From an uncultured Planctomycetota bacterium (lineage in GTDB: Bacteria > Planctomycetota > Phycisphaerae > SM23-33), in NCBI GenBank assembly GCA_903892515.1, contig CAITIS010000067.1:65347-129346 (forward strand): a stretch of DNA of 64,000 nucleotides, read 5' to 3'. The stretch's first letter is position 1. Each line of letters begins with the position of its first letter. This document shows, piece by piece, positions 38,065 to 57,324 of this stretch. The notes below the pieces were generated by a model that had not been told where the DNA came from, ran no database searches, and saw nothing but the letters and a program-made list of their open reading frames with translations. Made by a program: the position numbers and the translations under genes.

Positions 38065-39069
38065 CTACGCGTCGGATCGGTCTCTGATCACGCGCCGCAC
38101 GGCGTACGTGTGCCGCTGGCCGCTCTCGAAGTAGACCCGCATGAGCATCTCGCCCATCAGGCCAGTGGCCAGGCACAGCAGGCCGGCGACCAGGAAGAGC
38201 ACGCCCATCGCCAGCAGCGGGCCGTGCGTGTGGACGATGGAGAAATCCTGCCAGCTAACCAGCTTGCGGATCAGCAAGTACAGCAGAATCGCCCCGCCGC
38301 TGGCCAGTCCGAGCATGCCGCCCTTGCCGAAGAAGTGCATGGGGCGCGTGAGATAGGCCGTGGTGAAACGCAGCGTCAGCAGATCGAGTGCGACGCGGAA
38401 GGTCCGGCCGATGCCGTAGTTGCTCTTGCCGGCCTTGCGGCGGACGTTCTTGATGGGCACCTCGCAGATGCGCGCCCCCCACCGGGCGATGATGGCGGGC
38501 ACGTACCGGTGCATGTCGCCATACAGGCGGATGCCTTCGAGCACTTCGCGCCGATACGCCTTGAACGTGGTGCCGAAATCATGCAGCGGCACGCCCGACA
38601 CGGCCGCCAGCAGTTTGTTGGCGATCCGGCTGGGCAGACGCCGCAGCAGAAAGCCGTCGCCGCGACGAATCCGCCAGCCGCTGGCCACGTCGTAGCCCTC
38701 GTCGATCTTCTTGATAAAGAGCGGAATCTCGTACGGATCGTGCTGTAAATCGCCGTCCATGGCGATGATGACCTGCCCGCGGCAGTGGTCAAAGCCCGCC
38801 TGCAGCGCGGTGGTCTGGCCAAAGTTCCGACGCAAGTCCACGAAGATCACGCGGCCATCGTCTCGGCTGATTTGCTCCAGCATCGCCGGCGTGTCATCTT
38901 TGCTGCCGTCATTGACGAAGACCATTTCGTACGGCTGGCCGACGTGCTTCATGACGCGTGCGATCCGCTCGTATAACGTGCGGACGATGCCAGCTTCGTT
39001 GTAGAACGGCACGACGATGCTGTACTTGATGTCGCTGTTTGAACTATCCATGCTGTTAAAGCTGTCCAT
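38065..39069 (-). CDS. GT2 glycosyltransferase (polyprenyl-phosphate sugar transferase-like, C-terminal TM helices)
   Basis: YSIVVPFYNE ... VFVNDGSKD ... DGDLQHDP motifs. Two C-terminal TM segments. Confidence 0.8.
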   Translation of the reverse strand: MDSFNSMDSSNSDIKYSIVVPFYNEAGIVRTLYERIARVMKHVGQPYEMVFVNDGSKDDTPAMLEQISRDDGRVIFVDLRRNFGQTTALQAGFDHCRGQVIIAMDGDLQHDPYEIPLFIKKIDEGYDVASGWRIRRGDGFLLRRLPSRIANKLLAAVSGVPLHDFGTTFKAYRREVLEGIRLYGDMHRYVPAIIARWGARICEVPIKNVRRKAGKSNYGIGRTFRVALDLLTLRFTTAYLTRPMHFFGKGGMLGLASGGAILLYLLIRKLVSWQDFSIVHTHGPLLAMGVLFLVAGLLCLATGLMGEMLMRVYFESGQRHTYAVRRVIRDRSDA

Positions 39070-39904
39070 AATGAATCAACTGCACGCCACGCAGGCGGAT
39101 TCTTTCCTTTACCCGTTCATCGCACAACGCGTCGAGTTCGGCCCGGCGGCTTTCACGCAGCCGGGTCTGCCCGTGGGGCACGTCCTCGGCGTAGCCGGGA
39201 TGAACCATGATCTCCGTCGCCCCGGCCGTCAAACCATCGATGGCCGACAGCAAGTACGCCACGTCGATGTGGCCCGTGTGCGCCACGCCCAGCGTGCCCG
39301 TCGTGCCGACTAAGTCTCCGCCACGGCGAGCGTTGCCCCGGCCCAACCAGTTCAGCACACAGCTGAGGCGGCGCCGCTTGGCCGAGGTCGGCTCGAACGC
39401 GCCGGCGGCCAGGTGTTCAGCGTGCCGGCGCACGTGCGGGATATCATAGCGGCGGCAAAGCCCCAGCACGAGGCGGAAAACCGCCGGCCAGCCGTGCACG
39501 TGCCGGTGACTGTCCATGTGCGTAGGTTTCAGGCCCAGTGAAAGCGCCCGTTCGATCTGGGCGGCGAACTCAGCCTCGATGGCCGGCAAGAAGCGGCGTC
39601 CGTGTAACAGGCAGCCCTTGATGATGGCATCGCCACTGGAGTTCATGACGCCGTTTTGGTCCGCGAGGACTTCTCGTCCTTGCTTTGAGAGTGCCGGTCC
39701 CTGACATGCGTTCAAGTGCACTCCAACGCCCAGGCTGGGCGTCTGGATGGCGATCGCGGCGGCGTACTCACAGGCAGGCATGTTGGCCGCCAACGTAGTG
39801 GAAGTAATGACGCCGTGCCGATGGCCATGCACGATGCCGTCGGTGATGCCGCGCGACCAGCCGAAATCGTCGGCATTGACGATCAGGCGGACCGAGTCGG
39901 ACAT
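39056..39904 (-). CDS. YdjC/ChbG-family carbohydrate deacetylase (HpnK-like)
   Basis: LIVNADDFG..GI..GI...H..G.ITSTTL motif at the N-terminus. Start set at MSDSVRLIV. Confidence 0.7.
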   Translation of the reverse strand: MSDSVRLIVNADDFGWSRGITDGIVHGHRHGVITSTTLAANMPACEYAAAIAIQTPSLGVGVHLNACQGPALSKQGREVLADQNGVMNSSGDAIIKGCLLHGRRFLPAIEAEFAAQIERALSLGLKPTHMDSHRHVHGWPAVFRLVLGLCRRYDIPHVRRHAEHLAAGAFEPTSAKRRRLSCVLNWLGRGNARRGGDLVGTTGTLGVAHTGHIDVAYLLSAIDGLTAGATEIMVHPGYAEDVPHGQTRLRESRRAELDALCDERVKERIRLRGVQLIHYGQL

Positions 39905-40011
39905 GGCACAGCCGTGGCTCGACTGAACTAGCCGAAGCGCCTTGGCTGTGGGCATCTTCGTAGCACAGCCGCCCTCGGCTGTGGGTTTGCTCGTATCCTG
40001 CTCTCCCGCCA

Positions 40012-40962
40012 TCATTGCGGCCTCTCCCGCAACTTCACGCCCATCGCCCAGGCCCCAAGCACGCCGACGCAGGCCGGGAGCAGCAGCACGATCAAGGCGT
40101 TAGTCAGGTACGCCGCCAGCACCATCGACGGCGTGAACCCGAACGCCCCGAAGACCCCCACCGCCACCGTCTCGCGCACGCCGAAGCCGCCGGGCGTAGC
40201 CGGGATGAGGTTATTGAGCATGACCACCGGCGTCAGGGCTGAGGCCATCAGCAGCCCGATGGGCCCGAAGGCGCGCAGGCAGAGATAGACGGTCAGCACA
40301 CTGAGAACTTCGGCCAGGATCGAAGTGGCCAGGAACACGCCAAATGGCCACCATGGCAGCGTGATTTCCGCCAGTTGCTTGGCCTTGCCTGGCAGCAGGC
40401 GGGTAAACAAGCCCCACAGTCGAGCAGGCCGATAGTGCAGCAGCAGCGGAAAAGCCAGGGCCAGACACAGCAGCACAGGACAGGCGACCAGAGCGGCCGG
40501 TGGGATCTGCGAGCCGCCGAGTTTCACGTCGGCCGTCACGAGATACACCAGCCCCAGCAGGCACAGCAGCAGCACGCCAGCCAGGTCGAAGAGCCGTTCG
40601 ACCACGACCCACCCCGCCAGTTTGAGCCGCACGCCCTTGGGCACGAACATCGGCCTGACGACTTCCCCGCCGCGAAACGGCGTGGCCAGCCCCACGCCCA
40701 AGCCCGCCAGCATGGAAACCCACGCCTGCCGCCAGAGGATGGGCTGCCCCTCCAGCCCGGTCATCCAGCGCCACCGCGCCACCCGCACCGTCCAGTACGC
40801 CAGAGCCAATACGACGGCTCCCAGGAGATGCCCTGCGCTGGCGTGGCGAACCTCGGCGGCCAAGCTGGACCACTGCTGATGGCTCAGCAAATACGCCAAC
40901 AGCCCCGCGGCCAGTGCCAGCGAGAGCCCCTGCAAAATCCACGCTTTCAGACGAGACGGCAT
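40012..40962 (-). CDS. flippase-like / UPF0104 (lysyl-PG-synthase TM-region) family membrane protein
   Basis: ~316 aa with ~8 hydrophobic helices. Start at MPSRLKAW. Stop overlaps the YdjC start (ATGA). Same operon as the GT2 gene. Confidence 0.55.
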   Translation of the reverse strand: MPSRLKAWILQGLSLALAAGLLAYLLSHQQWSSLAAEVRHASAGHLLGAVVLALAYWTVRVARWRWMTGLEGQPILWRQAWVSMLAGLGVGLATPFRGGEVVRPMFVPKGVRLKLAGWVVVERLFDLAGVLLLCLLGLVYLVTADVKLGGSQIPPAALVACPVLLCLALAFPLLLHYRPARLWGLFTRLLPGKAKQLAEITLPWWPFGVFLATSILAEVLSVLTVYLCLRAFGPIGLLMASALTPVVMLNNLIPATPGGFGVRETVAVGVFGAFGFTPSMVLAAYLTNALIVLLLPACVGVLGAWAMGVKLRERPQ

Positions 40963-41034
40963 GAGGGGACAGCGTAGTCGATTTCGCCCCCTGGGGAAAG
41001 CGACTGATGCGCTGCATGACCGGGTTGTGCCTAA

Positions 41035-41292
41035 TACTACAACGCTACGAATGGAGCTTTGATAATTCGCCTGGCTTGGAGGCCCGGAGGGCCGAAACGA
41101 TTGTAGCCGTGGGCGTAAGCCCACGGAGACCGCCCCAGTGGCAAAGAGCCCCGGCGGGGCGACAGAGTCGTTGGACAAGCCAACGGTGTCGCCCCTTCGG
41201 GGCTCAGGCACAAGCCCATGCATACCGGGGGCTTACGCCCCCGGCTACAGTAGTACCGACCCTTCGGGTCTGAATTTCGTAGCGTTGTAGTA
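41035..41292. repeat. 258-bp structured element bounded by 17-bp perfect inverted repeats (TACTACAACGCTACGAA), MITE-like or structured RNA
   Basis: IR-L 41035..41051, IR-R 41276..41292. Nested internal inverted repeats (GGCGTAAGCCC/GGGCTTACGCC, GGGGCGAC/GTCGCCCC, CCCTTCGGG). Confidence 0.55.
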
Positions 41293-41539
41293 CTAACTGC
41301 GTCATCTGCAAATGGCGACTACTTCTCTGCAGGCAGTTGCGAATTGCGACGCAGAGAAACGGAGAGGCAGAGAAGGGCCGAGAATATTCAAGGGAATAAG
41401 GCGGAAGTCTCTCAATGGCTCCCCGAATCAGTTCTTCTCACAGTGCCTTTCTTCTCTGAGCCTCTCGACCTCTGCGTCGAATGCTGCCTGCTCTTCAAAG
41501 AGGTTCCCGCCAGAGAAGACAAGCGCGCCCAATCCCCCA

Positions 41540-42607
41540 CTAGCTCCACGGGGTCCGCTTCTTGATGACCTTCTTATCGCGGAAGTACTTCACGCGCTTG
41601 TAGTGGTCCTGCACGTTCGTCAGCAGCGGGTTGGTCTCATTCATGTCCTGGCCGGTGATCATGGTCAGCAACTCGGAGAACTCCTTCTCCGCCCGCAGCC
41701 AATCCTGGTCCTTTTCCAGCAGGTACGCATTGCGGTACTGTTCGCTGACCCGCTGCGTGACCTTTTCCAGCACCTGCTGGTACATGCGGTCATTTTCCGG
41801 ATCGGCAAAGAAGTTCCTGCCGCTGTACGCGTAGGCCTCCTTAAAGGCCTCCAGCACGCGGTAAAGGTGCGGCGAATCCAGCCCGTACTGCTGGTAGAGC
41901 CCCAGGGCGTAGTGCAGGCGATCTTCCATCAGCACCGGATTGACCGCCCGAACAGGCCGGGTCTCCAACGCTTTGGCGATGTCAGAACGCGAAAGTTCCG
42001 GCGGAATGGGCATTTCGTTCTCGTGCCGGCTGCTCAAGCCGGAGAGAAACAAGAACAGCAGCACCATCGCGGCCATGTATACGCCCAGGATGATCAGCAG
42101 CTTCTTTCGCCGCGAACTCTTGGGCACCGTCAACTTGTCCTGCAGGCCGACGCCGACGGCCTTGATGGCATTGCGACCTTCCGAGAGGGCAGGCAGCGTT
42201 TTGCCGGCATCAGGCTGGACCTTCTTGACGGTCTGGCCAAAGGCGTTGCGGCGTTTGTCGGGCTTCAACATGGCGGCCACGGCCTGCTCAACATCATCGC
42301 CGACGGCCACGAAGAGCAACTCGGTCTCGCGACCCACGCCGATGAGGTCGCCCGTATCCAAAAGCACGCTCTTGCCGCTTTTATACTTCCGGCCGTTGAT
42401 CCACGTGCCCAGGGCTGAAATGTTTTCGATGACCAGGCCGTCATCCACCCGGCGAAATCGAGCATGCTCGCGAGAAATGTACTGCTCGCTCAGAGACACA
42501 TTGGCCTCGGCAGAGCGGCCCAACAGCATGAGCGGGTCGGTCAGGATGACCCGCTTGCCGGCCTGGGGGCCCGCGAGAAACACAAGTTCGGCGTAAGTTT
42601 GACTCAT
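41540..42607 (-). CDS. FHA-domain protein with central TM helix (Tad/Kil-locus associated)
   Basis: N-terminal FHA (LLGRS..NVSLSEQYISREHARF ... NISALGTWINGRK). TM segment LLIILGVYMAAMVLLFLFLSGL. Confidence 0.75.
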   Translation of the reverse strand: MSQTYAELVFLAGPQAGKRVILTDPLMLLGRSAEANVSLSEQYISREHARFRRVDDGLVIENISALGTWINGRKYKSGKSVLLDTGDLIGVGRETELLFVAVGDDVEQAVAAMLKPDKRRNAFGQTVKKVQPDAGKTLPALSEGRNAIKAVGVGLQDKLTVPKSSRRKKLLIILGVYMAAMVLLFLFLSGLSSRHENEMPIPPELSRSDIAKALETRPVRAVNPVLMEDRLHYALGLYQQYGLDSPHLYRVLEAFKEAYAYSGRNFFADPENDRMYQQVLEKVTQRVSEQYRNAYLLEKDQDWLRAEKEFSELLTMITGQDMNETNPLLTNVQDHYKRVKYFRDKKVIKKRTPWS

Positions 42608-42710
42608 GGCTTGCTGGTTAGTCAGTTAATCGGTGAAGCAGCTAATCTCACGCGTCATCAGCATCAGCGTACGCCCGCGACCGGTCGCTGATTAACTGGT
42701 CTACTCTCCC

Positions 42711-43649
42711 TCAGAACAACTCCCGCTTCAAGGCCCGGATGATAATCGGAGCGAACACGGTCAGCACGACTGAAAGCAGCACCAGCAGGCTGGGCACGAG
42801 AATCCGCACCGAAGCGGCCGCTGCCAGTTTCTCCGCCCGCACAGACCGCTGCAACCGCATCAGGTTGGCCTGTTCTTTGAGCACAATCGACAGCGGCGTA
42901 CCGAGCCCTTCGGCCTGGATGATCGCCGCCACGATCGAGCGCAGCGATTCCAGCGGAATTCTATCGGACAGGTTGTGCAGTGCCATCGCCCGCGTGGTGC
43001 CCAGTTCCACCTCGGCCAGGACCGTGTTCAATTCCACGTTGAACGGGTGGCTGGGGTCTTCTCGGATCACCGTGCGAATCGCCTCGGTGAAGGTTGCGCC
43101 GGCCCCCATTGCCAATGCGATCAGGTCCAGCGTGTACGGCACGCGCCGGGCGATGTCATGCACCCGCCGCTTGGCCATGTTAAAGAGGTGGTACAGGTAA
43201 AAGCCGAAGCCGCCGACCAAACCAATGACGAGGGCCGCCGGGCTGAACTGCTGCTGCAGGGCCATGTTACCGACTGTCAGCAGGCCCGCTGAACCCACGC
43301 TGACGAGCAAGGCCATGGCAATGGCCTCATCCGTGGTGTAGAAGTTCGGGCTGCCGGCCGCAATGAGCGTCCGCCGAAGTCTTTCTCGCAAATTCGGGGC
43401 CGGAAGCTGCCGGGACAATGCCAGCAGCAGCCACAGCATGGGCGCGAAGAATGAGTTTTCAAAGAGCGTGCGCCGGTCGGCATGGCCAGTGGCAAGCGCC
43501 ATCTGCCGCTCGGGCGTGACCTCGACCCGGCCGTGCACGCCGAAGACCGCCAGCACGAACGCCACCACGAAGGCGAAGATCGCCCCCGCCAGGCCCCACT
43601 GCAGCAGGCTCATCTCGGCCAACGGGATGTTCAGTTCGATGTTATACAT
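42711..43649 (-). CDS. Tad pilus inner-membrane platform protein TadC-like (T2SS-F family)
   Basis: Polytopic. T2SSF-domain-like. Adjacent to and overlapping the TadB-like gene. Confidence 0.65.
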   Translation of the reverse strand: MYNIELNIPLAEMSLLQWGLAGAIFAFVVAFVLAVFGVHGRVEVTPERQMALATGHADRRTLFENSFFAPMLWLLLALSRQLPAPNLRERLRRTLIAAGSPNFYTTDEAIAMALLVSVGSAGLLTVGNMALQQQFSPAALVIGLVGGFGFYLYHLFNMAKRRVHDIARRVPYTLDLIALAMGAGATFTEAIRTVIREDPSHPFNVELNTVLAEVELGTTRAMALHNLSDRIPLESLRSIVAAIIQAEGLGTPLSIVLKEQANLMRLQRSVRAEKLAAAASVRILVPSLLVLLSVVLTVFAPIIIRALKRELF

Positions 43650-44507
43650 CGATGGACACAATCTGGCGGATCCACAGGAACCCGGCAACGTTGAGCAGAA
43701 TAATGAAAAACAGGATGACCTTTCCGGTGTCCTCGGTCACCAGCAGGCTCACGCCGTACGGGTCGATCATGTACAAAATGGCCAGAATCACCGCCGGCAT
43801 GGCGCCCATCCACCTGGCGGCCGTGCGACCCGGGGCGGTCAGCGTCTCGATCTGCTTCTCCAACCGATGAATCTCGCGGATGCTCTCGGCGATCCGTTCC
43901 AGCGTTTCGCCCAGGTCACCGCCGCGCTCGCGGTGCGTTAATAGAGCGGAAAACAGCAGCCGGTAGTTGCTCGACCCAATCCGGGAGGCCGCGTTCTGCA
44001 TGGCCTGTTCGAGCGAAATTCCGTGCTCGTACTCCCGCAGCAGGTGGGTGAATTCCTCGCTGATGGGCTTGGAGGCGTTGTGGGCCAACAGTTCCATCGC
44101 CTGCACCAGGTTGAGCCCGGCCCGCACGCCGCTGGACAACGTCTGGATGCCGTCAACAAGCTGATCCTCCAGCCGTGAAAGCCGCCGGCGTTTGAGCATC
44201 TTGATCGTCAGCACCGGCACGGCCAGCCCCAGCAAGGCCCCGCCCACCGCCACGAGCGCGTGCTGAATCAGCGTGTAGCCGATGGTAGCGAATAACGCCA
44301 TGCACAGGCCCGTCAGGACCGTCACCGTTCGCGGACTGATCTCCAGCAGCAGCGAGCCGCGTAGGACGGATTCGTACCCGCTCTCCTGACGCAGCACGAA
44401 ACGCCGAAACGGCGCCCAGCCGCCCAGAACAACCAGGAATACGGCCGTGAAGAGCACCGCTCCCATCGCGATCTGCCACAGCCGTTCGTCAGCCACCACC
44501 GCCATCA
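43642..44507 (-). CDS. Tad pilus inner-membrane platform protein TadB-like (T2SS-F family)
   Basis: Start set at [10 protein letters not shown] (first 148 codons of the long ORF overlap cpaF out of frame). Polytopic T2SSF-like. Confidence 0.65.
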
Positions 44508-46412
44508 CTGAAAGACCTCCAGCGCCAGCAGATCCTTTGCCATGAGTTCCTGCGTGAATTCCGGAATGTAGCCGGTGTGCTGGAGCCGCAGTTCGCCCTT
44601 CCACGCGCTGTCGAAGATATTGCCGCTGCCGAAGGACTCGTGTGCCGGCCGGAGGACGAAGATGTCCTCCGTGAGAATCTGCGAGGTTTCCTGATCCAGC
44701 CCCACCACCTCCGAAATATGCGTAATCCGCCGCCGGCCATCGGGGAATCTGGCTACCTGCACCACCAGGTGGATGGCCGCCACGATCTGCTCGCGAATAG
44801 CCCGCACCGGCATCTCGACGGCGGTCAGAACCATGGTTTCCAGCCGCATCATCGTGTCGGTCGGCGTGTTGGCGTGGATCGTGGTCAGCGAACCATCGTG
44901 GCCGGTGTTCATGGCCTGGAGCATGTCCAGAGCCTCGGGGCCGCGGCATTCGCCGACAATCAGCCGGTCCGGCCGCATACGCAGCGCGTTGCGGACCAGG
45001 TCGCGGATCGTGTAGGCGCCCCGGCCCTCGATGTTGGGCGGCCTGGTCTCCAGCCGGACGACGTGCTCCTGCGGCAGTTGCAGTTCGGCCGAATCTTCAA
45101 TGGTGACGATGCGTTCTTCGGCCCCGATGAAGGCAGCCAGCACGTTTAGCGTCGTGGTCTTGCCGCTGCCCGTGCCGCCGGAGATCAGGATGTTCTTCCG
45201 GCCTTGCACGCAGGCCTTGAGAAAGTTGGCCGTCGCCTCCGTCAGCGTGCTCCGCTCGACGAGGTCGTCGATGGTGAAGGGAATGCGGGCGAATTTTCGG
45301 ATCGTCAGGGTTGGCCCCGACAGGCTCAGCGGGTTGATGATAGCGTTGACGCGCGAGCCGTCGCTCAATCGGGCGTCCACCAGCGGCGTGGAGCGGTCGA
45401 TGCGCCTGCCCACGGGCGTGATGATTCGCTCGATAATGCTCAGGACAACTTCGTCGGAGAAGAAACTGCGGTCGGTGTTGGACACCTGGCCGTCCTTCTC
45501 AATATAAATGTGGTCCTTGCCCACGACCATGATCTCGTTGACGTGGGGCATCTCCAACAGATCCTGCAACGGGCCGTAGCCAAAGACGACGTCCTCGATT
45601 TCCTTGCTGACCATCCGCGTGGCCACGTAGCGGCGCAGCTCGTCAGTCACCTTGTCATCGCACCGCCGCAGCACGTTGTCGAAGTCCGCCTCGATCATGG
45701 CGGCGTCTTCCCGAATGGACTGCGGCGTCAGCCGAACCGGGAAGTAGCTGATGATGTCGCCCACAAGCCGGCTGAGCGTCTTTTCCAGTTCGCCCTGCAG
45801 GATGTCGGAATCCTCGAAACCGTAGCTGTACATCATCCGGCCTGTAGAACGCATGGTCAGTTCGGTAATGACGGAGCGCCAGAGGAATTCACGCAGCAGG
45901 TGAGCGAGCATCTCCTCGTCGAGTTCAGGCAACCGCTGCTGGATGATCTCGGCCAGGTGCCGCTTGATCAAGGCCGCGTAGTCCGCGTCGGCCTTGGCCA
46001 CTTGCGAGGCCACGCGCAAGTTCAGCCGTTCGAGCAATTGGGCGTGCAGCGACTGTTCGAATTCCACCAGCCGGCGGCGTGGCGTGGTCGTTTCGGCCGA
46101 GGCGCGTCCGCGCCGGGCCGATGGCTCCATCATGAACAGCGAGAACTCGCCCAGGCGAATCTCGTCACCGTAAGAGATCTTCGCACGCGTGTGCGGCGGA
46201 ACGTCGCGGTTGGCAACCGTCGTGCCGTTTAAGCCCAGGCTCTCGACGAAAAAGCTGCCGCTGTCCTTGAACAGCCGGGCGTGCTGACGCGAGACAAACG
46301 GGCTCTTGAGCGCAACCGTATTGCGCTCATCCCGGCCGATAGTGACTTCGCCATCGCCGACCTGGACGACCTTGCGCTCATCGGACAGGTGATTGTAGAC
46401 CCAGATTTCCAA
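44505..46412 (-). CDS. cpaF: Tad secretion ATPase CpaF/TadA with N-terminal FHA domain
   Basis: FHA motifs ([21 protein letters not shown]...GLNGTTVAN) then VirB11/CpaF core (Walker [10 protein letters not shown], Asp box, Walker B, His box). Confidence 0.85.
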
Positions 46413-46428
46413 ACGCCTCTCCCGCTGC

Positions 46429-47262
46429 CTATTGTCCCGGCTTTCCCGGTGTCACCGGCGCGTTGCTCAGCAGCGCCTCGACCTCCGGGTTGAGCTTGTT
46501 GTCGAACTGGGCCTGGTTGTCGGTGGGGTTCCTCACCGCCAGCCAAAGCTTGCCCTCGATCCGCGGCATCAGATCGGCCAGTTGCACGGCCACTTCAGGT
46601 TTGAGTTCCACGGTGAACGACCGGTACACGCGGGCGGCGCTGTCGCGGGCCGAGGAAACGCCTGGCCGGTCGTCGGGTGATTCGCTGCGCCCACCGATCG
46701 CGATGACGCGCAGATTCTGAATCAGCACATACGCCTTGGCCGGCCTGCCCTTGATGCTGAACAAGCCGATCAGATCGGCGCGGTCACCCACCTGAAGCAA
46801 GCCGCCGGGCGTGTAGCTCGGGTCCACCGGCAGCGAGACGCCCAGCATGCCCTTGCGGATGTTGATTGACGGGCTCTCGCGGTCGGAGCCGACAAGCTGA
46901 ACGAAGCGAATGTACTCGTCGCGGCTGACGGCGCGGTTGACGTGTACGTTTGGCCCCAACACAAGCTGTCGATCGGCCTTGGTCAGCACCTTGCCCTGGC
47001 TGTTGTATTCGTTGCGGTGGATGTCCACCTCGGCAAAGTCGTTGGGCGTGATTTCTTCGCCGCTCTTTAAGTCGCGAGTCCACTTGAGCACCGTGACGGT
47101 GTCGCCGGTCAATTGCCGCTCGCGGGCCGAGTCGTAGGCAATGAACAATCCCACGGCCACCAAGCCGGCGATCACCGCCACGAGCAGCAGCTTCTTGTTG
47201 ACCTGGCCGTCGCCGCCGGTGGGCGTCCCAGGGGCAATCCTCTTGGCAGTCGTTTCAGCCAT
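46429..47262 (-). CDS. cpaB: Flp pilus assembly protein CpaB/RcpC (SAF + periplasmic domain)
   Basis: N-terminal TM segment LLLVAVIAGLVAVGLF. SAF-like region and conserved CpaB C-terminal domain. Start at MAETTAKR. Confidence 0.75.
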   Translation of the reverse strand: MAETTAKRIAPGTPTGGDGQVNKKLLLVAVIAGLVAVGLFIAYDSARERQLTGDTVTVLKWTRDLKSGEEITPNDFAEVDIHRNEYNSQGKVLTKADRQLVLGPNVHVNRAVSRDEYIRFVQLVGSDRESPSINIRKGMLGVSLPVDPSYTPGGLLQVGDRADLIGLFSIKGRPAKAYVLIQNLRVIAIGGRSESPDDRPGVSSARDSAARVYRSFTVELKPEVAVQLADLMPRIEGKLWLAVRNPTDNQAQFDNKLNPEVEALLSNAPVTPGKPGQ

Positions 47263-47399
47263 CGTCTTCCTCGACCTCGTTTCGCCGCGTGACACGGGCG
47301 TCTCGCCCGTGCGTGTCACGGCCGTCTCGGCCGTGTTTCCTTCAGAACCATGGGCGAGACGCCCATGACACACATGGCCGAGACGGCCATGTCACATTC

Positions 47400-48014
47400 C
47401 TATCTCTTTAGCGGACGGGAGATCGCCAACGCAATCTCCGCCTGATCTTTTCTATCGGCTTGTCGAATGCCCACCCAGTAGGACTCTCCGTGGGCTTGGA
47501 CGAACGTGAGAGCGGATGAGCCGTCAATACCGGTGCGTTTCACGAGTTTGTACCCAAGTTTAGGCATGGCGGTTCGATAGAACGATTCCACGTCGTCCGG
47601 GCTAGAGGCCGCCGCATAGTGTAAGCTCCAACTCTCGATCCCGCCAATGTCGCGTGAAAAGCCGTACAGAAGCCGGCTCCCAGGCGGCGAAACCACCCAC
47701 GCCGGCGGCTGGGTCACCGGCCGCATGTGCTCCATCGCAAAGGGCTGGCTGGCCAAGGCAAACGGATCGGACGCGGGCATGGTCGAGTTCGCCGCCCAGG
47801 CATCTGCGTAATCTGCGGACGGCTGGGGCAAGTGACGAGCCCGCAGATTCCGCTCGACGACAAGAACATGCCCCGCAAGCCCCAACCCCACTGCCAGCAA
47901 CACGCCCATAACTTTCCACGCCAGTCGATGTCCAGACAGTCGGGGGCGGCTGGGCCGCTGGCTCTGGCCGTTGCCGCATTGCGCGTGCTCAGTTGGGCGG
48001 TCTGGCACCGTCAT
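47400..48014 (-). CDS. hypothetical membrane-anchored protein within Tad locus
   Basis: 204-aa ORF with an N-terminal hydrophobic segment. No recognised family. Overlaps the tadE-like stop by 4 nt. Confidence 0.45.
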   Translation of the reverse strand: MTVPDRPTEHAQCGNGQSQRPSRPRLSGHRLAWKVMGVLLAVGLGLAGHVLVVERNLRARHLPQPSADYADAWAANSTMPASDPFALASQPFAMEHMRPVTQPPAWVVSPPGSRLLYGFSRDIGGIESWSLHYAAASSPDDVESFYRTAMPKLGYKLVKRTGIDGSSALTFVQAHGESYWVGIRQADRKDQAEIALAISRPLKR

Positions 48015-48619
48015 TGCGTCGGCCGACCCCAGTAGCCCAGGTACAAGTTCTGGATCATCCCAACCATTCCCGCAGCCACCGGGTCAGCCGTTTCCAGCGA
48101 CTGATCCAAGTCCGAGAGGTACAGGGTCCGCAAGGCGTTCCAGCAACTGACGTCGTCGAGAACCCAGGTCACGCCGTCGCGGCTGTGGTGGCTCGATATC
48201 GTCGGCGAGAATCTCGCCCCCGCCCGGGGCTGAAGGGCTAGAAAATCGGCCGAGGCGCGAACATCGGTGCCGCCGGGAAAAGCCTCTCCGATGGTGGCAT
48301 CAGCCAGCGGCTGAGCGCCTTGACTGATCTGGCCAAGCAAGTCCTGCATGGTAGTAACCTCGGCGTTGCTGGGCGTGATGACGACGTTGACGCCCTTGCT
48401 GGCCATGGCCACCTCGTTGGTTCGGTCCTCACTGGGAGTGCCGTTGTAGATCGTCTCCCAGGCGGCGTATCGACTGGCCATGATGACCTGCTGCTTGTGC
48501 AGCATCGCCCAGCCAAAGAAGAAGATGAACGACACCACGGTGGCCAGGAACGGCAAGGCCAGCACCATCTCGGTCATGGCGGTGCCCGCGGCGAATTGTC
48601 GGTTGTGCGTGTGCATCAT
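48011..48619 (-). CDS. TadE-like pseudopilin (TadE/TadG N-terminal motif)
   Basis: N-terminus AAGTAMTEMVLALPFLATVVSFIFF matches the TadE-family pattern. Confidence 0.65.
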   Translation of the reverse strand: MMHTHNRQFAAGTAMTEMVLALPFLATVVSFIFFFGWAMLHKQQVIMASRYAAWETIYNGTPSEDRTNEVAMASKGVNVVITPSNAEVTTMQDLLGQISQGAQPLADATIGEAFPGGTDVRASADFLALQPRAGARFSPTISSHHSRDGVTWVLDDVSCWNALRTLYLSDLDQSLETADPVAAGMVGMIQNLYLGYWGRPTQ

Positions 48620-48706
48620 CTTCTCTCGGTCATCAGGTGGGCCTCACAATACAGCGTTCGGCCCAGCCTACGCATTTCCCTACGCCCTGCGCCCTACGCC
48701 CTGCCT

Positions 48707-50700
48707 CTAATGCTGCATCATCTGCTGGGCCATCTCGGCGCTGAAGTTCGACAAGTATCGGTACGTTTCAGAAACGGCCGACATGGACACAATCCCTTCC
48801 GTCTGGTCGGCCTGGTCTACTCCCTGCGATAGCCGGCTGATCCAGTCGTCCCAACGAGTAACAGGCACGAGTTTGACCTTCCAGTCCTGCGTCCAGAGAT
48901 CCCAACTCGTGGCGTTGAAGATTTCCACCTGCGACACCGCCAGAATGTGATCGAACGGATTCCCGCTGCCAAACCGCTGGGCCCAGGCCGTCGGCGTGTT
49001 TGGCTTGCGCGCGACGCCCAGCCAGGTAAACTGGCTCCGCCGCGATCCCTGATCGTGGTCGCTTGTGTAATCCTTGGCGTTGTCGGCCATCAGGATCGGC
49101 GCCGGCAAGCTTGCGTCATCGAGGCTGTCATAGTTGCTCGGGTCGTGAATCGGTTCGTCACTGCCCACATCGATGCCGCCAAAGACGTAGTCACTCACCA
49201 CGTACACGTTGAACAGAACCGGCTTGCCGCTGGCGTCAAGTTGCAGGGCGATGCCGATGGTTGCGTCTTGCTCCGTCTGGTAGAACCACTGGTCCTCCCA
49301 GATCCACTCGCCAATTTGTTGCAGCGACCATTTGGCAGGGTTTTCCCAATGATCCACCCAAACGGCCATGGGTGTCGGCGGGATGAAAAAGCTACCGGGA
49401 GAGAGGAACCGCCCATCCGTGCGAGGGTATCGGCTGCGAACTTCGATCCTGTAGAACATCGTCTGCCGAATCGTCACACCGCCGCGGTCGGCCAGAGCCA
49501 ATGCCTGCGGATAGTTGATCACCCAGTGGGGTCTGTGAATCTGCCGCTGCGCCTTGTCGCCCCACATGTACGCCAACTTAGCTGGGGCCAGCGTTCCCAT
49601 GTAGTAATTGGTCTGGTCGATGGGACGTTGCGTGGCGTAGCCGGCCGGGCCCGCGCTGGTCCCTGACCAGGGTCTGGCGAAGAGTGTGTCGCTCAGCCCC
49701 GAGGTGGACTGCGCCCACCACCCGACCTGGTCCATCATCCAATCGAAAGGCCCATATGGGGCGTAGCCGGTCTGGTCGATGGGACGCCAGGTCCAGTAGC
49801 CGTTGGGGTTGCCCATGCCGCTAAGTGCTCCGCTGCCGGTGGCACGCGTCTGGCCGCCCAGGCTAAACCCAGACGAGCCGGGTTGTATCTGCCCTGATCC
49901 AGGCGCCGGCGGCACATACCGGCCGGGCACGGTGTGGCCTCGGTAATCGCGCCAGCGAAAGAGTCGATCAAATGGCCCCAGGCGATACGGCCACTGCCGG
50001 TCGGGGATTATGCCATGTTTCACCGGGCCGGCGAAGTCGATGAACGCGCCCCGCCGGCCGGGGAACTCGGGCAGGATCGGCGTGACGAAGGCGTCGCTCG
50101 CCCCATCGCCGTGGCCATACTGCACCGCATTGGACTGGCTCAGCACGCCGGCAGAGGAGGTGACTGACTGGCTCAGTTCGTCCAGACTGACGGCCGCACG
50201 CCACAGTTCGCCGTGCGGCGGCGGTCCCGGCTGGTCGGCCAAGTGCCAATACGTCAATCGCTCCATGCGAAAGATGCCTTGGTTGAACAGCCGGTCCATC
50301 GGATCAAGAATGTTCTTCTGCCGCTCAAAGCGGTCTCGCAGCAGTTTCAGGCCCTGGTAGAGCGGCGAATCCTGGTTGTTGATCGTCTTGAGTTGCGCGG
50401 CCCCCTCCACCACGGCCAGTTGGTCATTCAGCCGGTTCAGCCAGGCGGTGGCGTCGAGGTTCGCCAGTTCCGTCGCCAGCGGAAGGGAGTCCAGGATCGG
50501 CACCAGGGCCAGCATGCGGGTCTGGGCCACGTTGTTCATGGCCACGGTGTTCATGCTGCGGGCCATCCACGTGGCGCCGCCCACGGCCGTGGCGTCGGCA
50601 GCGTTCTGCATCGCCAGATGACCGTTGAGTTGATCGCCGACATTGACGACGTAAAAGATCATTCCCGCCAGCAGCAGAATCCCCAGCAAGACCACCACGA
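48707..50700 (-). CDS. TadG-like large pilus-assembly/pseudopilin protein
   Basis: Tad_N-like pattern VVVLLGILLLAGMIFYVVNVGDQLNGHLAMQNAADATAVGGA. True start likely a GTG near 50690; the long ORF N-terminus is translated repeat DNA. Confidence 0.6.
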
Positions 50701-50947
50701 GAATCTGGCCAGGTTGGAAAAGCAGGCCAGAGGTCAGAGGCCTGAGGGCAGAGGGAGAAGCAACCGCTGGGTGCCATGGTCGCGGAGTCCAGCGACCATG
50801 CGCGCTGCCTGCGTCCGTGTGGCCGCACGCGCCGCGACTACGACCCGCGCGGAAACATGCTTCCCCAAACAGCGTGGAAGCATGGCACCCAATCAAGCGC
50901 GGGCGAGACGCCCATGTCACAAAATGCCTCAGGCCCATGGCAGCTGA

Positions 50948-51014
50948 CCTCAGGCCACTGGCCTCGGGCCTCTGACCTCCGGCCTCTGACCTCCGGCCTC
51001 CGGCCTCTGGCCTC
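50948..51014. repeat. tandem GGCCTCTGACCTCC-type repeats (inverted copy at ~50722-50756)
   Basis: ggcctctgacctccggcctctgacctccggcctccggcctctggcctc seen directly. Reverse-complement copy across the 50760-50940 spacer. Confidence 0.7.
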
Positions 51015-51051
51015 TTCTCTTCGTGGCCTTTGTGGTCCAGGTTTTCCCGCA

Positions 51052-53712
51052 TCACTGGGGCCTTTTGGAGGCATCCTCGATGAGCTTTTCCACTTCGGGC
51101 GTCTGGCGGAAGCTCCTGGCGAGCTTGAAGTACGCCAGGGCCTGCACGTAATTCTGATCGGCCAGCTCCTGCTTGCCGCGCTGGAGGTTGTCCTGGTACT
51201 TAACCTCGTTGATCCGCTCCCTCACCTCGGGCTTGTCCAGCACGTTCTTGGCGGCGGTCAGCCGGTTGAGGGCCTCGCCGTAGTTGCCCTTGGCCCGTGC
51301 GGCCTCAGCCTGGTTCATGAGGTCGGAATACTTCTTCTCAAGCTGCACCTGCTCGATGCGGGCGCGGGCTTCGGGCGTGTTGGGCCTGGCCGCGTCGGCC
51401 CGCCGATAGGACGCCTCGGCCTTGGCCCAATCCTTGGCCGCGACAGCCTGATCGCCTTCGTACATCGCCTTGGCGTATTGCGCGTCGGCCAGTTTGGCCT
51501 TGATCTCGTCTCCCGGCCGGACGCCAGCGGCGGCGTGGTACTTCTCAATCGCGTCGTCAAATTTCTTCTCGGCCAGCAGCTTGTCGCCGGCCTGCGTGAG
51601 GCCCTGATAGTCTTTCAGCTTGCTCGCCTCGGCCAGCTCCGCCTGCACCTCGGGCGTATCACGACACTCCTTGGCCTTGTTGAACTCGTCCAGCGCCAAC
51701 TCCACCTGGCCGGTCGTCATGTGCTGCCGCCCCTGCTCCAAGTTGTAGTTGTAGCGGAGGTCCTTGACCTTCTCCGCCAGTTCCGGCGTGCTCTTGAGCT
51801 TCAGGGCCTTGTCGTACGCGTCGGCGGCCGCCATCATCTGGTTCTGGCTCAGCGCGGTCTCGGCCTCGGCGATGGCCTTGCCGTACTCGATGCCGACCTT
51901 CAGCTCGGCCTTCTTCTGTTCGGCCGTCTGCTTGAGCTGCTGATAGACCTCCGGCGAAAGCGACTGCCGCTCGCTCTCGACCACGGCCAGCGCCTTCTCA
52001 CACTCAATCATCGCCTCGTCGGGCTTGTTCTCGGTCATGGCCTGATCGGCCTTCTGCAGGTGGCCCAGGTACTCGCTCTGCTTTTGCATCTCCTGGATCT
52101 TGGCGGTCAAAGCCTTGACCTCGTCAAACTGTTCGGTCAGCAGGGCCTTCTTGCCGGCCTCCTCGGCCTCGGTCAGCGCTTGCGCCAGATTGCCGCTGGC
52201 AATGCCGGCCTTGGCGGCCTCGAGCCTCTTCTGGTAATCCCGCTGCTGCATGTAGTAGTCGCTGAACTCCTTGAGTTGGTCCTTCATGTCCTGCGTCCAC
52301 TTGTACAGCTCCCCCTGGGCGTTTCGCTGGATATCCACGTTCCGGTCGGACGCTTTGGACCAGTACATATCCACGCTGTTGCTGTTGTTTTCGAGCACGC
52401 CCAGTTGCGCCGTCGTCAGCCAGCTCATTACCTCGGCCTTGGAGGCTGTGTTGGGCGCCTGCTCGCCATAACGCTTGGCGATGCGGCCAAACGCTGCGCC
52501 CGCCTCGCCGAACTTAGCCTGTTTGACCGCGCGGCTGGGAGCCTTGGCGGCTTCGCGATAGTCCACCAGGGCCTGGTCATAGGCCTGCTGGGCATCGCGG
52601 CGAACCATGTCGCGCTGCAAGTAGCTCCGCACCAGCAGGAACACGAGCACGACCACCACCAAGCCCATGATCGATGCGACATAGGCGAGCTTCTTGCCCA
52701 GTGACATGCTCGTCTTTGGAATGCTCGCCGTCAGTGCCTCTTGAGGCGAAGGCACCGCCCCCGTCGGCGGCACGGACAACTCCGCCGAGTCGCCGGGGCT
52801 GATTGGAGCAGGCCGCTCCGCCGTATCTCGGCCAGGGCGGCTGAAGGAAGCCCGGATATCCCGGCCTAGCGCTTCAACGTCGGCGTATCGCTTGGCGGGG
52901 TCTTTGGCCATCATCTTCTCGACCACGGATGAAAGGCTTGCCGGCACGGATGGATTCGCTTCCGCCAGCGGCGGCGCCGACACATCCGGCGAGGAATGCC
53001 ATTTCATCCACCGCAGCGCTTCGCTGTGCGGATCGCGCACGATGTCCTGGAAGATCTCGTTGAACTTACTCCGCCCGCACAGCATCTCGTAGGAAATAAT
53101 GCCCAGCGAGTAGATGTCCGACTGGCCGTCCACCTGGGCGGTCGAGAACAATTCCGGCGCCATGTACTTGGTGGTGCCCAGTTTCATCGACGCAGCCGAA
53201 CCCGTCCGGGCCGCCACGCCGAAGTCGGTGATCTTGACCCGCAGATCCTTGGTGATGAGGATGTTGCCGGGCTTGATGTCGCGGTGGATGATGCCCGCGC
53301 GGTGAATCGACGACAGCCCGGCCGCGATCCGCCAGATGATCTGCAGGGCCGATTTCGTCTCGATCGGCTTACCCGGGGTGAGCATCGATTCGAGACTCTG
53401 GCCGTCGACGAACTCCATGACCACGAACATGCCGCTGGGCTCTTCGAGCATGTCCAGAAGCGTCACGACGTGCTCGCTGCCGAGCTTGGCCACCTGCTGG
53501 GCAACCTCGCGGTAGCGGCGAATGAACGCGGCATCGGAAGAAGCCGGGGCGGGAATCTGCTTGATGGCGACGAAGCGGTCGAGCACCGGGTCGTGGGCCT
53601 TGTACACAATGGACTGCCCGCCCGCGCCGATGCGTTCGAGGATGACGTACTTGCCGATCTTCGTGCCCGGCGGCAACGCACCGGCCATAGCTTGTTTCAT
53701 ATCAACGGCCAT
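51052..53712 (-). CDS. Hanks-type Ser/Thr protein kinase, single TM, long C-terminal TPR/coiled-coil domain
   Basis: GAGGQSIVYKA..VAIKQ, HRDIKPGNIL, DFG, YMAPE motifs. TM segment LAYVASIMGLVVVVLVFLLV. ~500 aa of TPR-like repeats. Confidence 0.85.
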   Translation of the reverse strand: MAVDMKQAMAGALPPGTKIGKYVILERIGAGGQSIVYKAHDPVLDRFVAIKQIPAPASSDAAFIRRYREVAQQVAKLGSEHVVTLLDMLEEPSGMFVVMEFVDGQSLESMLTPGKPIETKSALQIIWRIAAGLSSIHRAGIIHRDIKPGNILITKDLRVKITDFGVAARTGSAASMKLGTTKYMAPELFSTAQVDGQSDIYSLGIISYEMLCGRSKFNEIFQDIVRDPHSEALRWMKWHSSPDVSAPPLAEANPSVPASLSSVVEKMMAKDPAKRYADVEALGRDIRASFSRPGRDTAERPAPISPGDSAELSVPPTGAVPSPQEALTASIPKTSMSLGKKLAYVASIMGLVVVVLVFLLVRSYLQRDMVRRDAQQAYDQALVDYREAAKAPSRAVKQAKFGEAGAAFGRIAKRYGEQAPNTASKAEVMSWLTTAQLGVLENNSNSVDMYWSKASDRNVDIQRNAQGELYKWTQDMKDQLKEFSDYYMQQRDYQKRLEAAKAGIASGNLAQALTEAEEAGKKALLTEQFDEVKALTAKIQEMQKQSEYLGHLQKADQAMTENKPDEAMIECEKALAVVESERQSLSPEVYQQLKQTAEQKKAELKVGIEYGKAIAEAETALSQNQMMAAADAYDKALKLKSTPELAEKVKDLRYNYNLEQGRQHMTTGQVELALDEFNKAKECRDTPEVQAELAEASKLKDYQGLTQAGDKLLAEKKFDDAIEKYHAAAGVRPGDEIKAKLADAQYAKAMYEGDQAVAAKDWAKAEASYRRADAARPNTPEARARIEQVQLEKKYSDLMNQAEAARAKGNYGEALNRLTAAKNVLDKPEVRERINEVKYQDNLQRGKQELADQNYVQALAYFKLARSFRQTPEVEKLIEDASKRPQ

Positions 53713-53720
53713 TCAATTCC

Positions 53721-54452
53721 CTATCCGCCCGCAGGAATGTCGCGGGGAAACTTCTCCACATCGATCTCATCCACCAGCCCCTCATTGGGCAAGGCAAAGG
53801 ATGCCGCTGCCGCCGTGGCGTAACCGCCGCCAACACCTGTTGACTCGCCAAACAGGCGATTGGCGTACGGCACCGACAGGAACAGCAAGTGCGTCACGCG
53901 CACCTGCAAGTCTTCGTGCGCGGCATACGCCCAGCCATCCGCCGGCGGCGCCAATGTAACCTGCGTGTTCTCATACGCGTAATTATACTTCGCCGCCAGC
54001 AATTGGCCGACCCAGTTGGGCACGCCTTGGCCTGAACGCAGGAAGAACTCCCGCAGCCCATCGCTGATCGCACCGGTCGAATCGCCCTGACCGCCGGCAC
54101 TCTTGCCCGACGATATCGGCAGCACCGTGAACACCGCGGCCATGCGAATGTGCTGGTACTTTTCGTCGGTGAGCTTGTTCCAGTTCCGAAAAGCTGGATC
54201 GGCTCCGCTACTCGACGGCAGATCTTCTGGTATCCAGACCACGGCCGACCTGGCCGCAGCATAAGCGGCCGCGTTCACGGCCAGATTGCCCGCCATCAGC
54301 AACATCGACTGAATCAGGATCAGCACGATCGCCAGTGCGACCGGAAAGACCAGCGCGAACTCGACCGCGGCCGTGCCTTCCTGACCGCCGAATCGACGGG
54401 AACCGTAGGGCGGGCACTGCCCGCCGCGATTTCTCCCCAATCGCCGCATCAT
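53721..54452 (-). CDS. TadE-like pseudopilin (second copy)
   Basis: N-terminus MRRLGRNRGG...GTAAVEFALVFPVALAIVLILIQ (TadE motif). Start trimmed. The 22-bp palindromic element falls in codons 7-14. Confidence 0.6.
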   Translation of the reverse strand: MMRRLGRNRGGQCPPYGSRRFGGQEGTAAVEFALVFPVALAIVLILIQSMLLMAGNLAVNAAAYAAARSAVVWIPEDLPSSSGADPAFRNWNKLTDEKYQHIRMAAVFTVLPISSGKSAGGQGDSTGAISDGLREFFLRSGQGVPNWVGQLLAAKYNYAYENTQVTLAPPADGWAYAAHEDLQVRVTHLLFLSVPYANRLFGESTGVGGGYATAAAASFALPNEGLVDEIDVEKFPRDIPAGG

Positions 54453-54690
54453 GCCGCACAGGAAGACCAGCACCGCACCGCTGGCCAACATGCATAGACC
54501 GGCAATCACGGTCAGCCGGTTGGTCAGGAACCCGTCAAACCAGACTGGCCGGGCACGCCAAGCGATCCAGAGCACCACGGCCAGTGCGGCCACAGCGCTC
54601 AATTTGCACAACGCAAGGCCAACACGGCCGAACGACACATGGACGCGACGCCCATGCCGCGGCTCTCTGCCACCAGAATGAATCGATTGT

Positions 54691-55311: not shown

Positions 55312-55315
55312 CAGA

Positions 55316-55504
55316 TCAACCGGTACCTTCCGACTTGGTCGTATTCCAGAGATCCTGCACCCAGGTGGCCAGGTCCTTCCGGAACCAGATAAGCAGGCCC
55401 AGCAGCGGCAGCACAACGGCCGCGATGATGAGCAGTTTTTCCAGACCTTCGGCGCCGCGCTCGTCGGAGTGGAGCTTTCTCAAACTCGTCCAGATTCTCT
55501 TCAT
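55316..55504 (-). CDS. Flp-family type IVb pilin
   Basis: 62 aa. MKRIWTSLRKLHSDERGAEGLEKLLIIAAVVLPLLGLLIWF has Flp-like G/xxxxE + hydrophobic-stretch architecture. Confidence 0.55.
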   Translation of the reverse strand: MKRIWTSLRKLHSDERGAEGLEKLLIIAAVVLPLLGLLIWFRKDLATWVQDLWNTTKSEGTG

Positions 55505-57310: not shown

Positions 57311-57324
57311 TATCCAGAGAGTAC

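Follow-up and report, generated by a model that had tools for sequence, protein, structure and literature searches.

An FHA-fused CpaF ATPase, a Ser/Thr kinase and a minimal CpaF paralogue in one conserved Tad-like pilus operon of Planctomycetota

Background

Why should a single pilus operon encode two CpaF-family ATPases of which only one carries an FHA domain, and might this domain connect the motor to a Ser/Thr kinase encoded in the same operon? These questions are raised by a stretch of 64,000 nucleotides (the window, to which all positions refer) from an uncultured Planctomycetota bacterium assigned to the Phycisphaerae (GenBank assembly GCA_903892515.1, contig CAITIS010000067.1, positions 65,347 to 129,346), in which a Tad-like (type IVc) pilus operon of ~14 genes occupies 56999 to 41540 on the minus strand, with short gaps between the genes. 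The ATPase with the FHA domain, here referred to as FHA-CpaF, is encoded at 44505..46412 and the one without it, CpaF2, at 55884..56999. We report that the FHA-CpaF fusion is already known and very common, and adds nothing new by itself; less ordinary is that FHA-CpaF shares its operon with a Ser/Thr kinase and with another, reduced CpaF paralogue. Our data suggest, with a probability of about 0.6, that the main motor is recruited or activated by a phosphothreonine generated by the operon kinase, and that CpaF2 represents a second motor without phospho-control. The features that carry this reading are as follows:

44505..46412, minus strand: FHA-CpaF, 635 amino acids (aa), with FHA domain, helical region, N-terminal domain (NTD) and ATPase domain (Pfam FHA and T2SSE)
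46125..46412, minus strand: FHA domain, aa 1-96 of FHA-CpaF (Pfam, AlphaFold2, Foldseek)
45582..46124, minus strand: linker and helical region, aa 97-277 of FHA-CpaF (conservation profile, AlphaFold2 model, Foldseek)
55884..56999, minus strand: CpaF2, 371 aa, NTD and ATPase domain only, first gene of the operon (T2SSE, 188.9 bits)
51052..53712, minus strand: membrane Ser/Thr kinase, 886 aa (Pkinase, 177.7 bits)
52714..52731, minus strand: juxtamembrane motif T328-A-S-I-P-K, aa 328-333 of the kinase (alignment of orthologous kinases)
41540..42607, minus strand: second FHA protein, 355 aa, last gene of the operon (FHA, 46.3 bits; Yop-YscD_cpl, 35.3 bits, cut-off 33.2)

The FHA-CpaF fusion

The reading frame of FHA-CpaF is unbroken and starts with a TTG codon at 46412, a few bases past the ribosome-binding site GGGAGAGG. 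A preliminary description of the locus had assigned the hallmarks of an FHA domain to the first ~100 aa and a complete CpaF ATPase to the remainder, and both assignments agree with the domain searches. Specifically, Pfam FHA (PF00498) matches aa 23-88 over its entire profile (1-67 of 67) with 58.5 bits and an E-value of 9.1e-16 (cut-off 20.7), and T2SSE (PF00437) matches aa 280-554 with 200.5 bits. The hallmarks G26-R27, S41-R42-Q-H44 and N62-G63 are legible in the sequence, and in an alignment of 40 orthologues (67-79% identity) G26, R27, S41, H44 and N62 are invariant while R42 is at least 90% conserved. In the AlphaFold2 (AF2) model aa 1-96 form an 11-strand beta-sandwich with strands over aa 2-95 and a predicted local distance difference test (pLDDT) value of 84-91, and Foldseek matches this region to the solved FHA domains of GarA (7rj3), FhaA (3poa) and Bdellovibrio DgcB (6hc1) with template-modelling (TM) scores of 0.69-0.79 and a root-mean-square deviation (rmsd) of ~3 Å; the DgcB structure was solved in complex with a phospho-peptide. 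The Yop-YscD_cpl profile also matches FHA-CpaF, with 28.7 bits (cut-off 33.2). As judged from profile and model, the N-terminus of FHA-CpaF is a canonical FHA domain that is predicted to bind phosphothreonine.

The ATPase part carries the Walker A sequence GGTGSGKTT, and its Asp box, Walker B (including the catalytic Glu) and His box are retained as well. Its best solved relative is Caulobacter CpaF (8rkd/9e24, 352 bits), and the fold of the ATPase part of the model matches the same protein (8rjf/9e24, E-value 5e-28, 43% identity; Foldseek). The scores of other solved ATPases against FHA-CpaF and CpaF2 are 117-149 bits for FlaI/GspE2, 95-114 for VirB11 and 34-47 for PilT. These comparisons identify FHA-CpaF as a CpaF/TadA orthologue and, by prediction, as the main Tad motor ATPase of the operon.

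Between the FHA domain and the NTD, ~7 helices are predicted in aa 97-277 (spans 111-131, 142-163, 166-190, 207-222, 230-250 and 257-277; pLDDT mostly 70-87; AF2). The helices at aa 207-277 stand ahead of the NTD in the model, and the last three helices of the region are probably the three-helix bundle (3HB) of CpaF; the Foldseek alignment to CpaF extends over ~426 columns and the whole 424-residue chain, with a high rmsd and a poorly modelled ATPase core. The connector from the FHA domain to the core consists of a linker of ~15 residues followed by extra predicted helices (pLDDT 72-86), with no long disordered region. The linker ends in the motif [S/T]110-P111-R-[R/K]-R (46080..46094, minus strand; aa 107-111 and following), which is conserved among the 119 homologues, ~90% of which have S or T at position 110, with P111 invariant and R112 and R114 nearly so. 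The motif may be a site of phosphorylation or may act as a basic surface for docking.

A protein 100% identical to FHA-CpaF is present on four contigs (ENA and NCBI), an independent gene call yields the same 635-aa product, and 119 of 119 full-length homologues among the 120 best matches combine FHA and T2SSE at a length of 620-647 aa. The objection that an artefact of assembly, or a frameshift, has joined a separate FHA gene to cpaF is refuted by these homologues, by the identical protein on four contigs and by the continuous frame, and its probability is negligible.

The fusion is also widespread. FHA-CpaF has 39,687 relatives among 1.84 billion cluster representatives at 50% identity, and when 138 distant representatives from among the top 150 were examined with a hidden Markov model (HMM) built from the family, 70 showed an N-terminal FHA domain. 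Full-length matches in species-level genomes derive from Phycisphaerae, Pirellulaceae, Planctomycetaceae and Myxococcota; in a further full-length match, from a metagenome-assembled genome (MAG) of the Spirochaetaceae, no FHA was registered with the family HMM. The novelty of the fusion that was implied in the preliminary description does not hold: CpaF orthologues with an N-terminal FHA domain have been defined as class III in the cryo-EM study of Caulobacter CpaF (PMC12019362), the Myxococcus Kil ATPase, KilF, carries an N-terminal FHA fusion (PMC8460266), and JGI already annotates close homologues as 'CpaF family ATPase / FHA protein'.

The second CpaF-family ATPase

Two CpaF-family ATPases with FHA on only one of them, the other lying 10 kb away, had been noted before. 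Pfam corroborates the pair, with T2SSE and no FHA in CpaF2, and the spacing of ~9.5 kb is close to that given; to be corrected is the impression of separate loci, since the two genes belong to the same minus-strand array and operon.

CpaF2 is 44% identical to aa 280-624 of FHA-CpaF over 350 residues (NTD and ATPase domain), its best solved relative is Caulobacter CpaF (254 bits), and its catalytic motifs (Walker A, Asp box, Walker B and His box, the catalytic Glu of Walker B included) are intact. It lacks the FHA domain and the entire region equivalent to aa 97-277 of FHA-CpaF, and it aligns to CpaF 9e24 from residue 150, where the NTD starts, with only 16 aa ahead. The AF2 model of CpaF2 (pLDDT 86.9; predicted TM score, pTM, 0.79) has no 3HB and matches CpaF 8rjf with a TM score of 0.81 over 351 columns (Foldseek). 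The minimum architecture of CpaF has been reported to be 3HB, NTD and ATPase domain, and removal of the 3HB abolishes CpaF in Caulobacter (PMC12019362). By alignment and predicted structure, the CpaF2 clade falls below this minimum.

In a neighbour-joining tree of 259 CpaF cores (100 bootstraps), CpaF2 is placed in an 18-member clade (bootstrap 100) and FHA is absent from every member. The clade holds the second ATPases of Phycisphaerae (L002, L004 and L051), of Pirellulaceae (L006 and L027), of a Myxococcota MAG (L010) and of a 'Deltaproteobacteria' MAG (L041), and each of these loci also encodes an FHA-CpaF. The close FHA-CpaF clade has a bootstrap value of 98-100, with 0-29 for the deeper nodes. 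A phylogeny had been suggested as a way to understand the two copies, and it presents them as anciently diverged, co-occurring paralogues and not as a recent duplication. Because the copies are anciently diverged, co-occur and are 44% identical, non-redundant roles are favoured.

A search seeded with the L041 protein retrieved a large family of CpaF2-like proteins of 366-391 aa in Myxococcales, Polyangiaceae and Myxococcota. Three of their gene contexts were compared: in two (L085 and L086) the genes for CpaB, secretin, FHA-CpaF, TadB, TadC, an unassigned protein, a TPR protein, CpaF2 and further unassigned proteins follow one another in this order as one operon; in the remaining one (L084) the ATPase gene ahead of tadB/tadC is broken up into T2SSE pieces, and FHA was not detected. 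Among 80 species-level loci, a gene of the CpaF2 clade lies within 10 kb of 6 of the 19 CpaF genes with FHA and of 0 of the 61 without it (Fisher p = 9e-5). By these sequence comparisons the pairing is thus ancient, its two members are non-redundant in sequence, and CpaF2 is associated with the FHA-bearing form. In the literature searched, Tad systems are described with a single motor, and where tadA/cpaF paralogues are reported (Bdellovibrio, Sinorhizobium) they occupy separate loci; that no pair within one operon came up there is no proof of novelty.

Kinase and candidate docking site

The operon, with the kinase and both FHA proteins included, is syntenic in seven related loci (L002, L003, L004, L159, L160, L161 and L162), in which FHA-CpaF is 54-78% identical to that of the window; the named relatives are Planctomycetota, Phycisphaerae or Phycisphaeraceae. 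The kinase at 51052..53712, to which the preliminary description had already drawn attention, is indeed part of the same operon and is conserved in 7/7 of the related ones. It occupies the same position in L002, L003, L004, L159, L160 and L162 (stored DNA reaching that far), and in L161 it lies upstream with an extra gene inserted. The 355-aa FHA protein follows tadC in 7/7 related loci and has a cytoplasmic FHA domain, a transmembrane helix at aa 170-188 and an outer helical domain of ~165 aa.

The kinase consists of a Hanks domain (aa 22-278), a variable juxtamembrane linker, a transmembrane helix (aa 343-361) and, as its outer domain, ~520 aa of helical repeats. The VAIK lysine, the GTT activation loop and the motifs HRD, DFG and APE are all present, and it is a complete, active-looking Hanks-type kinase. 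The outer domain (aa 362-886; 51052..52630, minus strand) is composed of repeated helical units of ~60 aa each, TPR-like in look, and a '[ST]PE[VAL]' motif occurs in each unit (e.g. DTPEVQAEL, STPELAEKV, DKPEVRERI and QTPEVEKLI); the outer domains of the orthologues gave only faint TPR matches. A metagenome scan with the kinase as query retrieved only generic Hanks kinases of 29-38% identity, and the orthologous kinases were gathered operon by operon.

In 8 of 8 orthologous operon kinases the motif T-A-x-[I/L]-P-[K/R] is invariant ~12 residues before the transmembrane helix, while the rest of the juxtamembrane linker is hypervariable in length and sequence. The classic ligand of FHA domains has the shape of a phosphothreonine with Ile or Leu at +3. 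Since the motif is invariant and shaped like this pT-x-x-[I/L] ligand, we propose T328 as a candidate docking site for the FHA domain of CpaF, that of the 355-aa membrane protein, or both. Moreover, a Hanks kinase lies within 10 kb of 6 of the 19 FHA-bearing CpaF loci and of 1 of the 61 others (Fisher p = 5e-4).

Proposed mechanism and alternatives

According to the mechanism that we propose, the transmembrane kinase would sense an envelope or surface cue via its large outer helical-repeat domain and phosphorylate one or several threonines, the prime candidate being its own juxtamembrane T328-A-S-I and, possibly, the TT of the activation loop (T188/T189). The FHA domains of CpaF and of the membrane-anchored 355-aa protein would dock on the phosphothreonine, and docking would recruit or activate the hexameric motor at the TadB/TadC platform, such that pili would be assembled only when and where the kinase fires; the 355-aa protein, with its gene next to those of the platform, probably joins the same docking. 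CpaF2 would most likely work on the same machine as a motor without phosphorylation control, e.g. in retraction or as an auxiliary. We consider the gating step, from kinase to FHA domain, somewhat more probable than its absence. A split of extension and retraction between the two ATPases is conceivable by analogy, given that short PilT-type motors have no extra N-terminal domains and PilB-type motors do.

Several points weigh against this mechanism. The extension/retraction idea has the architectural analogy with PilT-type motors as its sole basis, and the two enrichment tests (p = 9e-5 and 5e-4) treat related genomes as independent, several of the contigs being short. Of the FHA-bearing CpaF loci, 13/19 are without a kinase within 10 kb, and none is nearby in the Myxococcota loci L085 and L086; the kinase is therefore not an obligatory neighbour. 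No secretin or TadZ/CpaE was found in the window among the open reading frames (ORFs) scanned (most of at least 150 aa), and no PP2C phosphatase was found among these or among the listed genes of the related loci, which leaves both machine and circuit incomplete as seen; the scan for these three covered the operon and, elsewhere, ORFs from ~150 aa upwards except for a few 150-335 aa in length. To our knowledge no experiment ties any FHA-CpaF to a kinase, and some FHA-like domains of secretion systems (YscD/PrgH type) work without phosphothreonine.

This last behaviour, known from some type III secretion basal-body proteins, suggests an alternative in which FHA would be a phospho-independent scaffold that aids ATPase oligomerisation, or docking on the platform or on the membrane-anchored FHA protein, with no kinase input. 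Such a role would be consistent with the Yop-YscD_cpl matches of both FHA proteins (28.7 bits for FHA-CpaF, and 35.3 bits, above the cut-off, for the 355-aa protein), with the many FHA-bearing loci that have no kinase nearby and with the lack of a phosphatase among the ORFs scanned. However, the phosphothreonine-contact residues G-R, S-R-x-H and N-G are present and the key ones invariant in the 40 orthologues, the closest folds are the phosphopeptide-binding FHA domains of GarA, FhaA and DgcB, and the kinase, with its invariant T-x-x-[I/L] motif, is fixed in all seven related operons; we regard the scaffold as unlikely. Alternatively, the FHA domain might act within the motor by binding a phosphorylated site of its own linker or of an adjacent subunit, e.g. 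[S/T]110-P-R-[R/K]-R, so that phosphorylation would switch hexamer assembly or autoinhibition and not recruitment to the kinase. The conservation of S/T at position 110, followed by the invariant P111, would fit this, and the FHA domain of DgcB (6hc1) binds its own phosphorylated N-terminal peptide. The consensus at position 110 is Ser, though, with a basic residue and not I, L or D at +3, and FHA domains select phosphothreonine over phosphoserine. Given the dominance of Ser and the basic +3 residue, [S/T]110 is judged the less likely FHA ligand and an intramolecular switch is distinctly improbable.

The two ATPases could also serve different outputs, CpaF2 a Flp pilus and FHA-CpaF a contact-triggered, Kil-like secretion or killing, or they could form mixed hexamers. 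The gene arrangement is compatible with separate outputs, with CpaF2 at the head of the operon by two small pilin genes and FHA-CpaF together with cpaB and tadBC; in Myxococcota operons CpaF2 has conserved flanking genes of its own (for a TPR protein upstream, for proteins of ~500 and ~230 aa downstream), and contact-dependent killing by Kil systems involves an FHA-fused ATPase (PMC8460266). Against this, the operon has one TadB/TadC pair and one CpaB, no effector or toxin candidates were identified, and CpaF2 lacks the 3HB, which is reported to be essential for CpaF and FlaI as sole assembly motor (PMC12019362). Different outputs or mixed hexamers therefore appear quite unlikely.

We thus return to a main motor gated by the operon kinase with CpaF2 as a second motor on the same machine. 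FHA coupling of Ser/Thr phosphorylation to the recruitment of a Tad/Kil motor has so far been proposed only for Myxococcus, where NG-KilF clusters at sites of prey contact and the authors propose an FHA-based signalling cascade with PpkA-Fha1 of the type VI secretion system (T6SS) as precedent (PMC8460266); here it is directly testable, with the kinase, two FHA proteins, the candidate docking threonine and both motors in one conserved operon as a clean natural test case. More generally, and tentatively, some Tad-like pili, forming a widespread subtype in Planctomycetota and Myxococcota, might be two-motor machines in which a phosphothreonine-gated CpaF and a minimal CpaF2 share one TadB/TadC platform, the split being one of extension and retraction or of triggered and basal activity, and the trigger in Phycisphaerae being the operon kinase with a pT-A-x-[I/L] dock; we hold this wider model to be possible but doubtful. 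If true, it would run contrary to the current view of one bifunctional ATPase in Tad pili, and if the CpaF2 pairing is functional the switch between extension and retraction would not always reside inside a single bifunctional motor.

Comparison with known systems

With class III CpaF (e.g. Achromobacter xylosoxidans E3HIW0, with the order FHA, intrinsically disordered region, 3HB, NTD and C-terminal ATPase domain) the window protein shares the N-terminal FHA domain and the CpaF core (PMC12019362). Class III is reported mostly from Betaproteobacteria (PMC12019362), whereas the window protein is from Planctomycetota, and its FHA domain is joined through a short linker and a ~100-aa extra predicted helical region instead of a disordered one; a function of the FHA domain has been shown for none of the class III proteins.

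The Kil system of Myxococcus xanthus is, like the window operon, a Tad-like machine with an FHA-fused ATPase, further FHA proteins and no TadZ in the locus (PMC8460266). MXAN_4649, a PrgH-like FHA protein, adjoins the Kil platform gene, and the 355-aa FHA protein of the window comes after tadBC; the latter scores above threshold on the profile of the YscD cytoplasmic domain (type III secretion), and in this and in its place after tadC it parallels MXAN_4649. Kil is described with a single ATPase and a short, N0-less secretin, KilC, in the cluster, and as confined to predatory delta-proteobacteria (PMC8460266), while in the window operon two CpaF paralogues are encoded together with an embedded Hanks kinase, the host is a planctomycete, and no secretin was found in the window among the ORFs scanned. 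In the tree, the KilF-type proteins of Myxococcaceae (L079 and L080) do not group with the window protein, the deep nodes being poorly supported. Phycisphaerae-type loci have FHA-cpaF directly after cpaB, whereas a secretin gene lies between the two in the Myxococcota-type loci L041, L085 and L086.

Common to the canonical Tad/Cpa systems (Caulobacter, Aggregatibacter) and the window are the Flp pilin, the A24 peptidase, TadE/TadG, CpaB/RcpC, TadB/TadC and a CpaF-family motor. The canonical loci have one motor for extension and retraction, TadZ/CpaE and the CpaC/RcpA secretin (PMC12019362; bioRxiv 10.64898/2026.07.08.737194), in contrast to two motors, a kinase and FHA proteins in place of TadZ, and no secretin in the window operon.

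The Pseudomonas aeruginosa T6SS module PpkA/Fha1/PppA likewise combines a membrane Hanks kinase with an outer sensor domain and FHA protein(s) in the cluster of an envelope machine, an analogy that has been drawn for Kil (PMC8460266). It differs from the window in the kind of machine; here FHA is fused to the motor ATPase itself and no PP2C was found in the ORFs scanned. Finally, type IVa pili resemble the window in having two paralogous hexameric ATPases, a short one with NTD and ATPase domain (PilT) and a long one with extra N-terminal domains (PilB). Both ATPases of the window are of the CpaF lineage (CpaF 253-352 bits, PilT 34-47), and the functional parallel is one of analogy only.

Operon structure

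In the direction of transcription the gene order is CpaF2, a 57-aa pilin-like protein, Flp pilin, A24 peptidase, a TadE-like protein, the kinase, a TadG-like protein, a second TadE-like protein, a 204-aa protein, CpaB/RcpC, FHA-CpaF, TadB, TadC and the 355-aa FHA protein. The genes tadB/tadC, cpaB, flp and that for the prepilin peptidase are all on the same strand as the two ATPase genes, from 42711 to 56999, and we regard the identity of the operon parts as close to certain. The components not listed above are:

55714..55887, minus strand: pilin-like protein, 57 aa, with a G/QMTLEW leader and a hydrophobic helix (translation)
55316..55504, minus strand: Flp-type major pilin, 62 aa from Met39 of the listed ORF, with a G/AEGLE processing motif (translation)
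54691..55311, minus strand: prepilin peptidase of the CpaA/TadV type (Peptidase_A24, 51.1 bits)
53721..54881, minus strand: TadE-like pseudopilin (TadE PF07811, 31.3 bits)
48707..51055, minus strand: TadG-like large pseudopilin or tip protein (Tad PF13400, 23.9 bits; position conserved in related loci)
48011..48619, minus strand: TadE-like pseudopilin, 202 aa (TadE PF07811, 23.5 bits)
47400..48014, minus strand: single-pass membrane protein, 204 aa, transmembrane helix at aa 35-53 (position conserved in related loci)
46429..47373, minus strand: CpaB/RcpC (RcpC, 39.4 bits; TIGR03177 pilus_cpaB, 76.7 bits, cut-off 71)
43642..44505, minus strand: TadB-type platform protein, 287 aa (T2SSF, 73.7 bits; gene call in L001)
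42711..43649, minus strand: TadC-type platform protein, 312 aa (T2SSF, 59.2 bits; gene call in L001)

A small ORF at the position of the 57-aa pilin-like protein is also present in L002, L003, L159 and L162, and orthologues of the Flp-type pilin match Flp_Fap or Flp1_like weakly. The start of the prepilin peptidase was set at Met36, in line with orthologues of 185-203 aa. By comparison with orthologues of 304-314 aa, the TadE-like protein at 53721..54881 probably has its true start ~60 codons past the listed one, and that of CpaB/RcpC is probably Met38 at 47262. The start of the TadB-type gene overlaps the stop codon of FHA-CpaF. The 204-aa membrane protein has no match in Pfam or NCBIfam, and no ParA/MinD-type protein was found among the operon genes. 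A promoter and terminator scan of 41000..57400 gave counts at the level of shuffled controls and is uninformative with respect to transcription units.

Genomic surroundings

Directly downstream of the operon, at 38065..41223 (minus strand), an LPG_synthase_TM protein and a YdjC-like protein are encoded, followed by a third ORF that sits where related loci have a glycosyltransferase-2 gene. The block is also present downstream in L001 and L002, and in part in L159 and L161, and could constitute an operon-linked module for envelope modification. A tRNA-Ser gene (anticodon CGA; 57221..57311, plus strand) immediately precedes the first operon gene on the other strand. Two paralogous proteins with GH42-like and DUF4832 domains are encoded at 6342..7814 (plus strand) and 57454..58842 (minus strand), and a trypsin-like protease with a dockerin domain at 59079..60188 (plus strand). 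The minus-strand ORFs at 60527..61759 (410 aa) and 61763..63805 (680 aa) were considered as operon-related and rejected as shadow ORFs of a plus-strand gene (GC by codon position 0.91/0.43/0.56). This gene is an ORF of at least 1150 aa at 60530..64000 (plus strand), which runs past the end of the window; its last residues are ..YNETRYTMLAKSN, which may point to a pyruvate:ferredoxin oxidoreductase.

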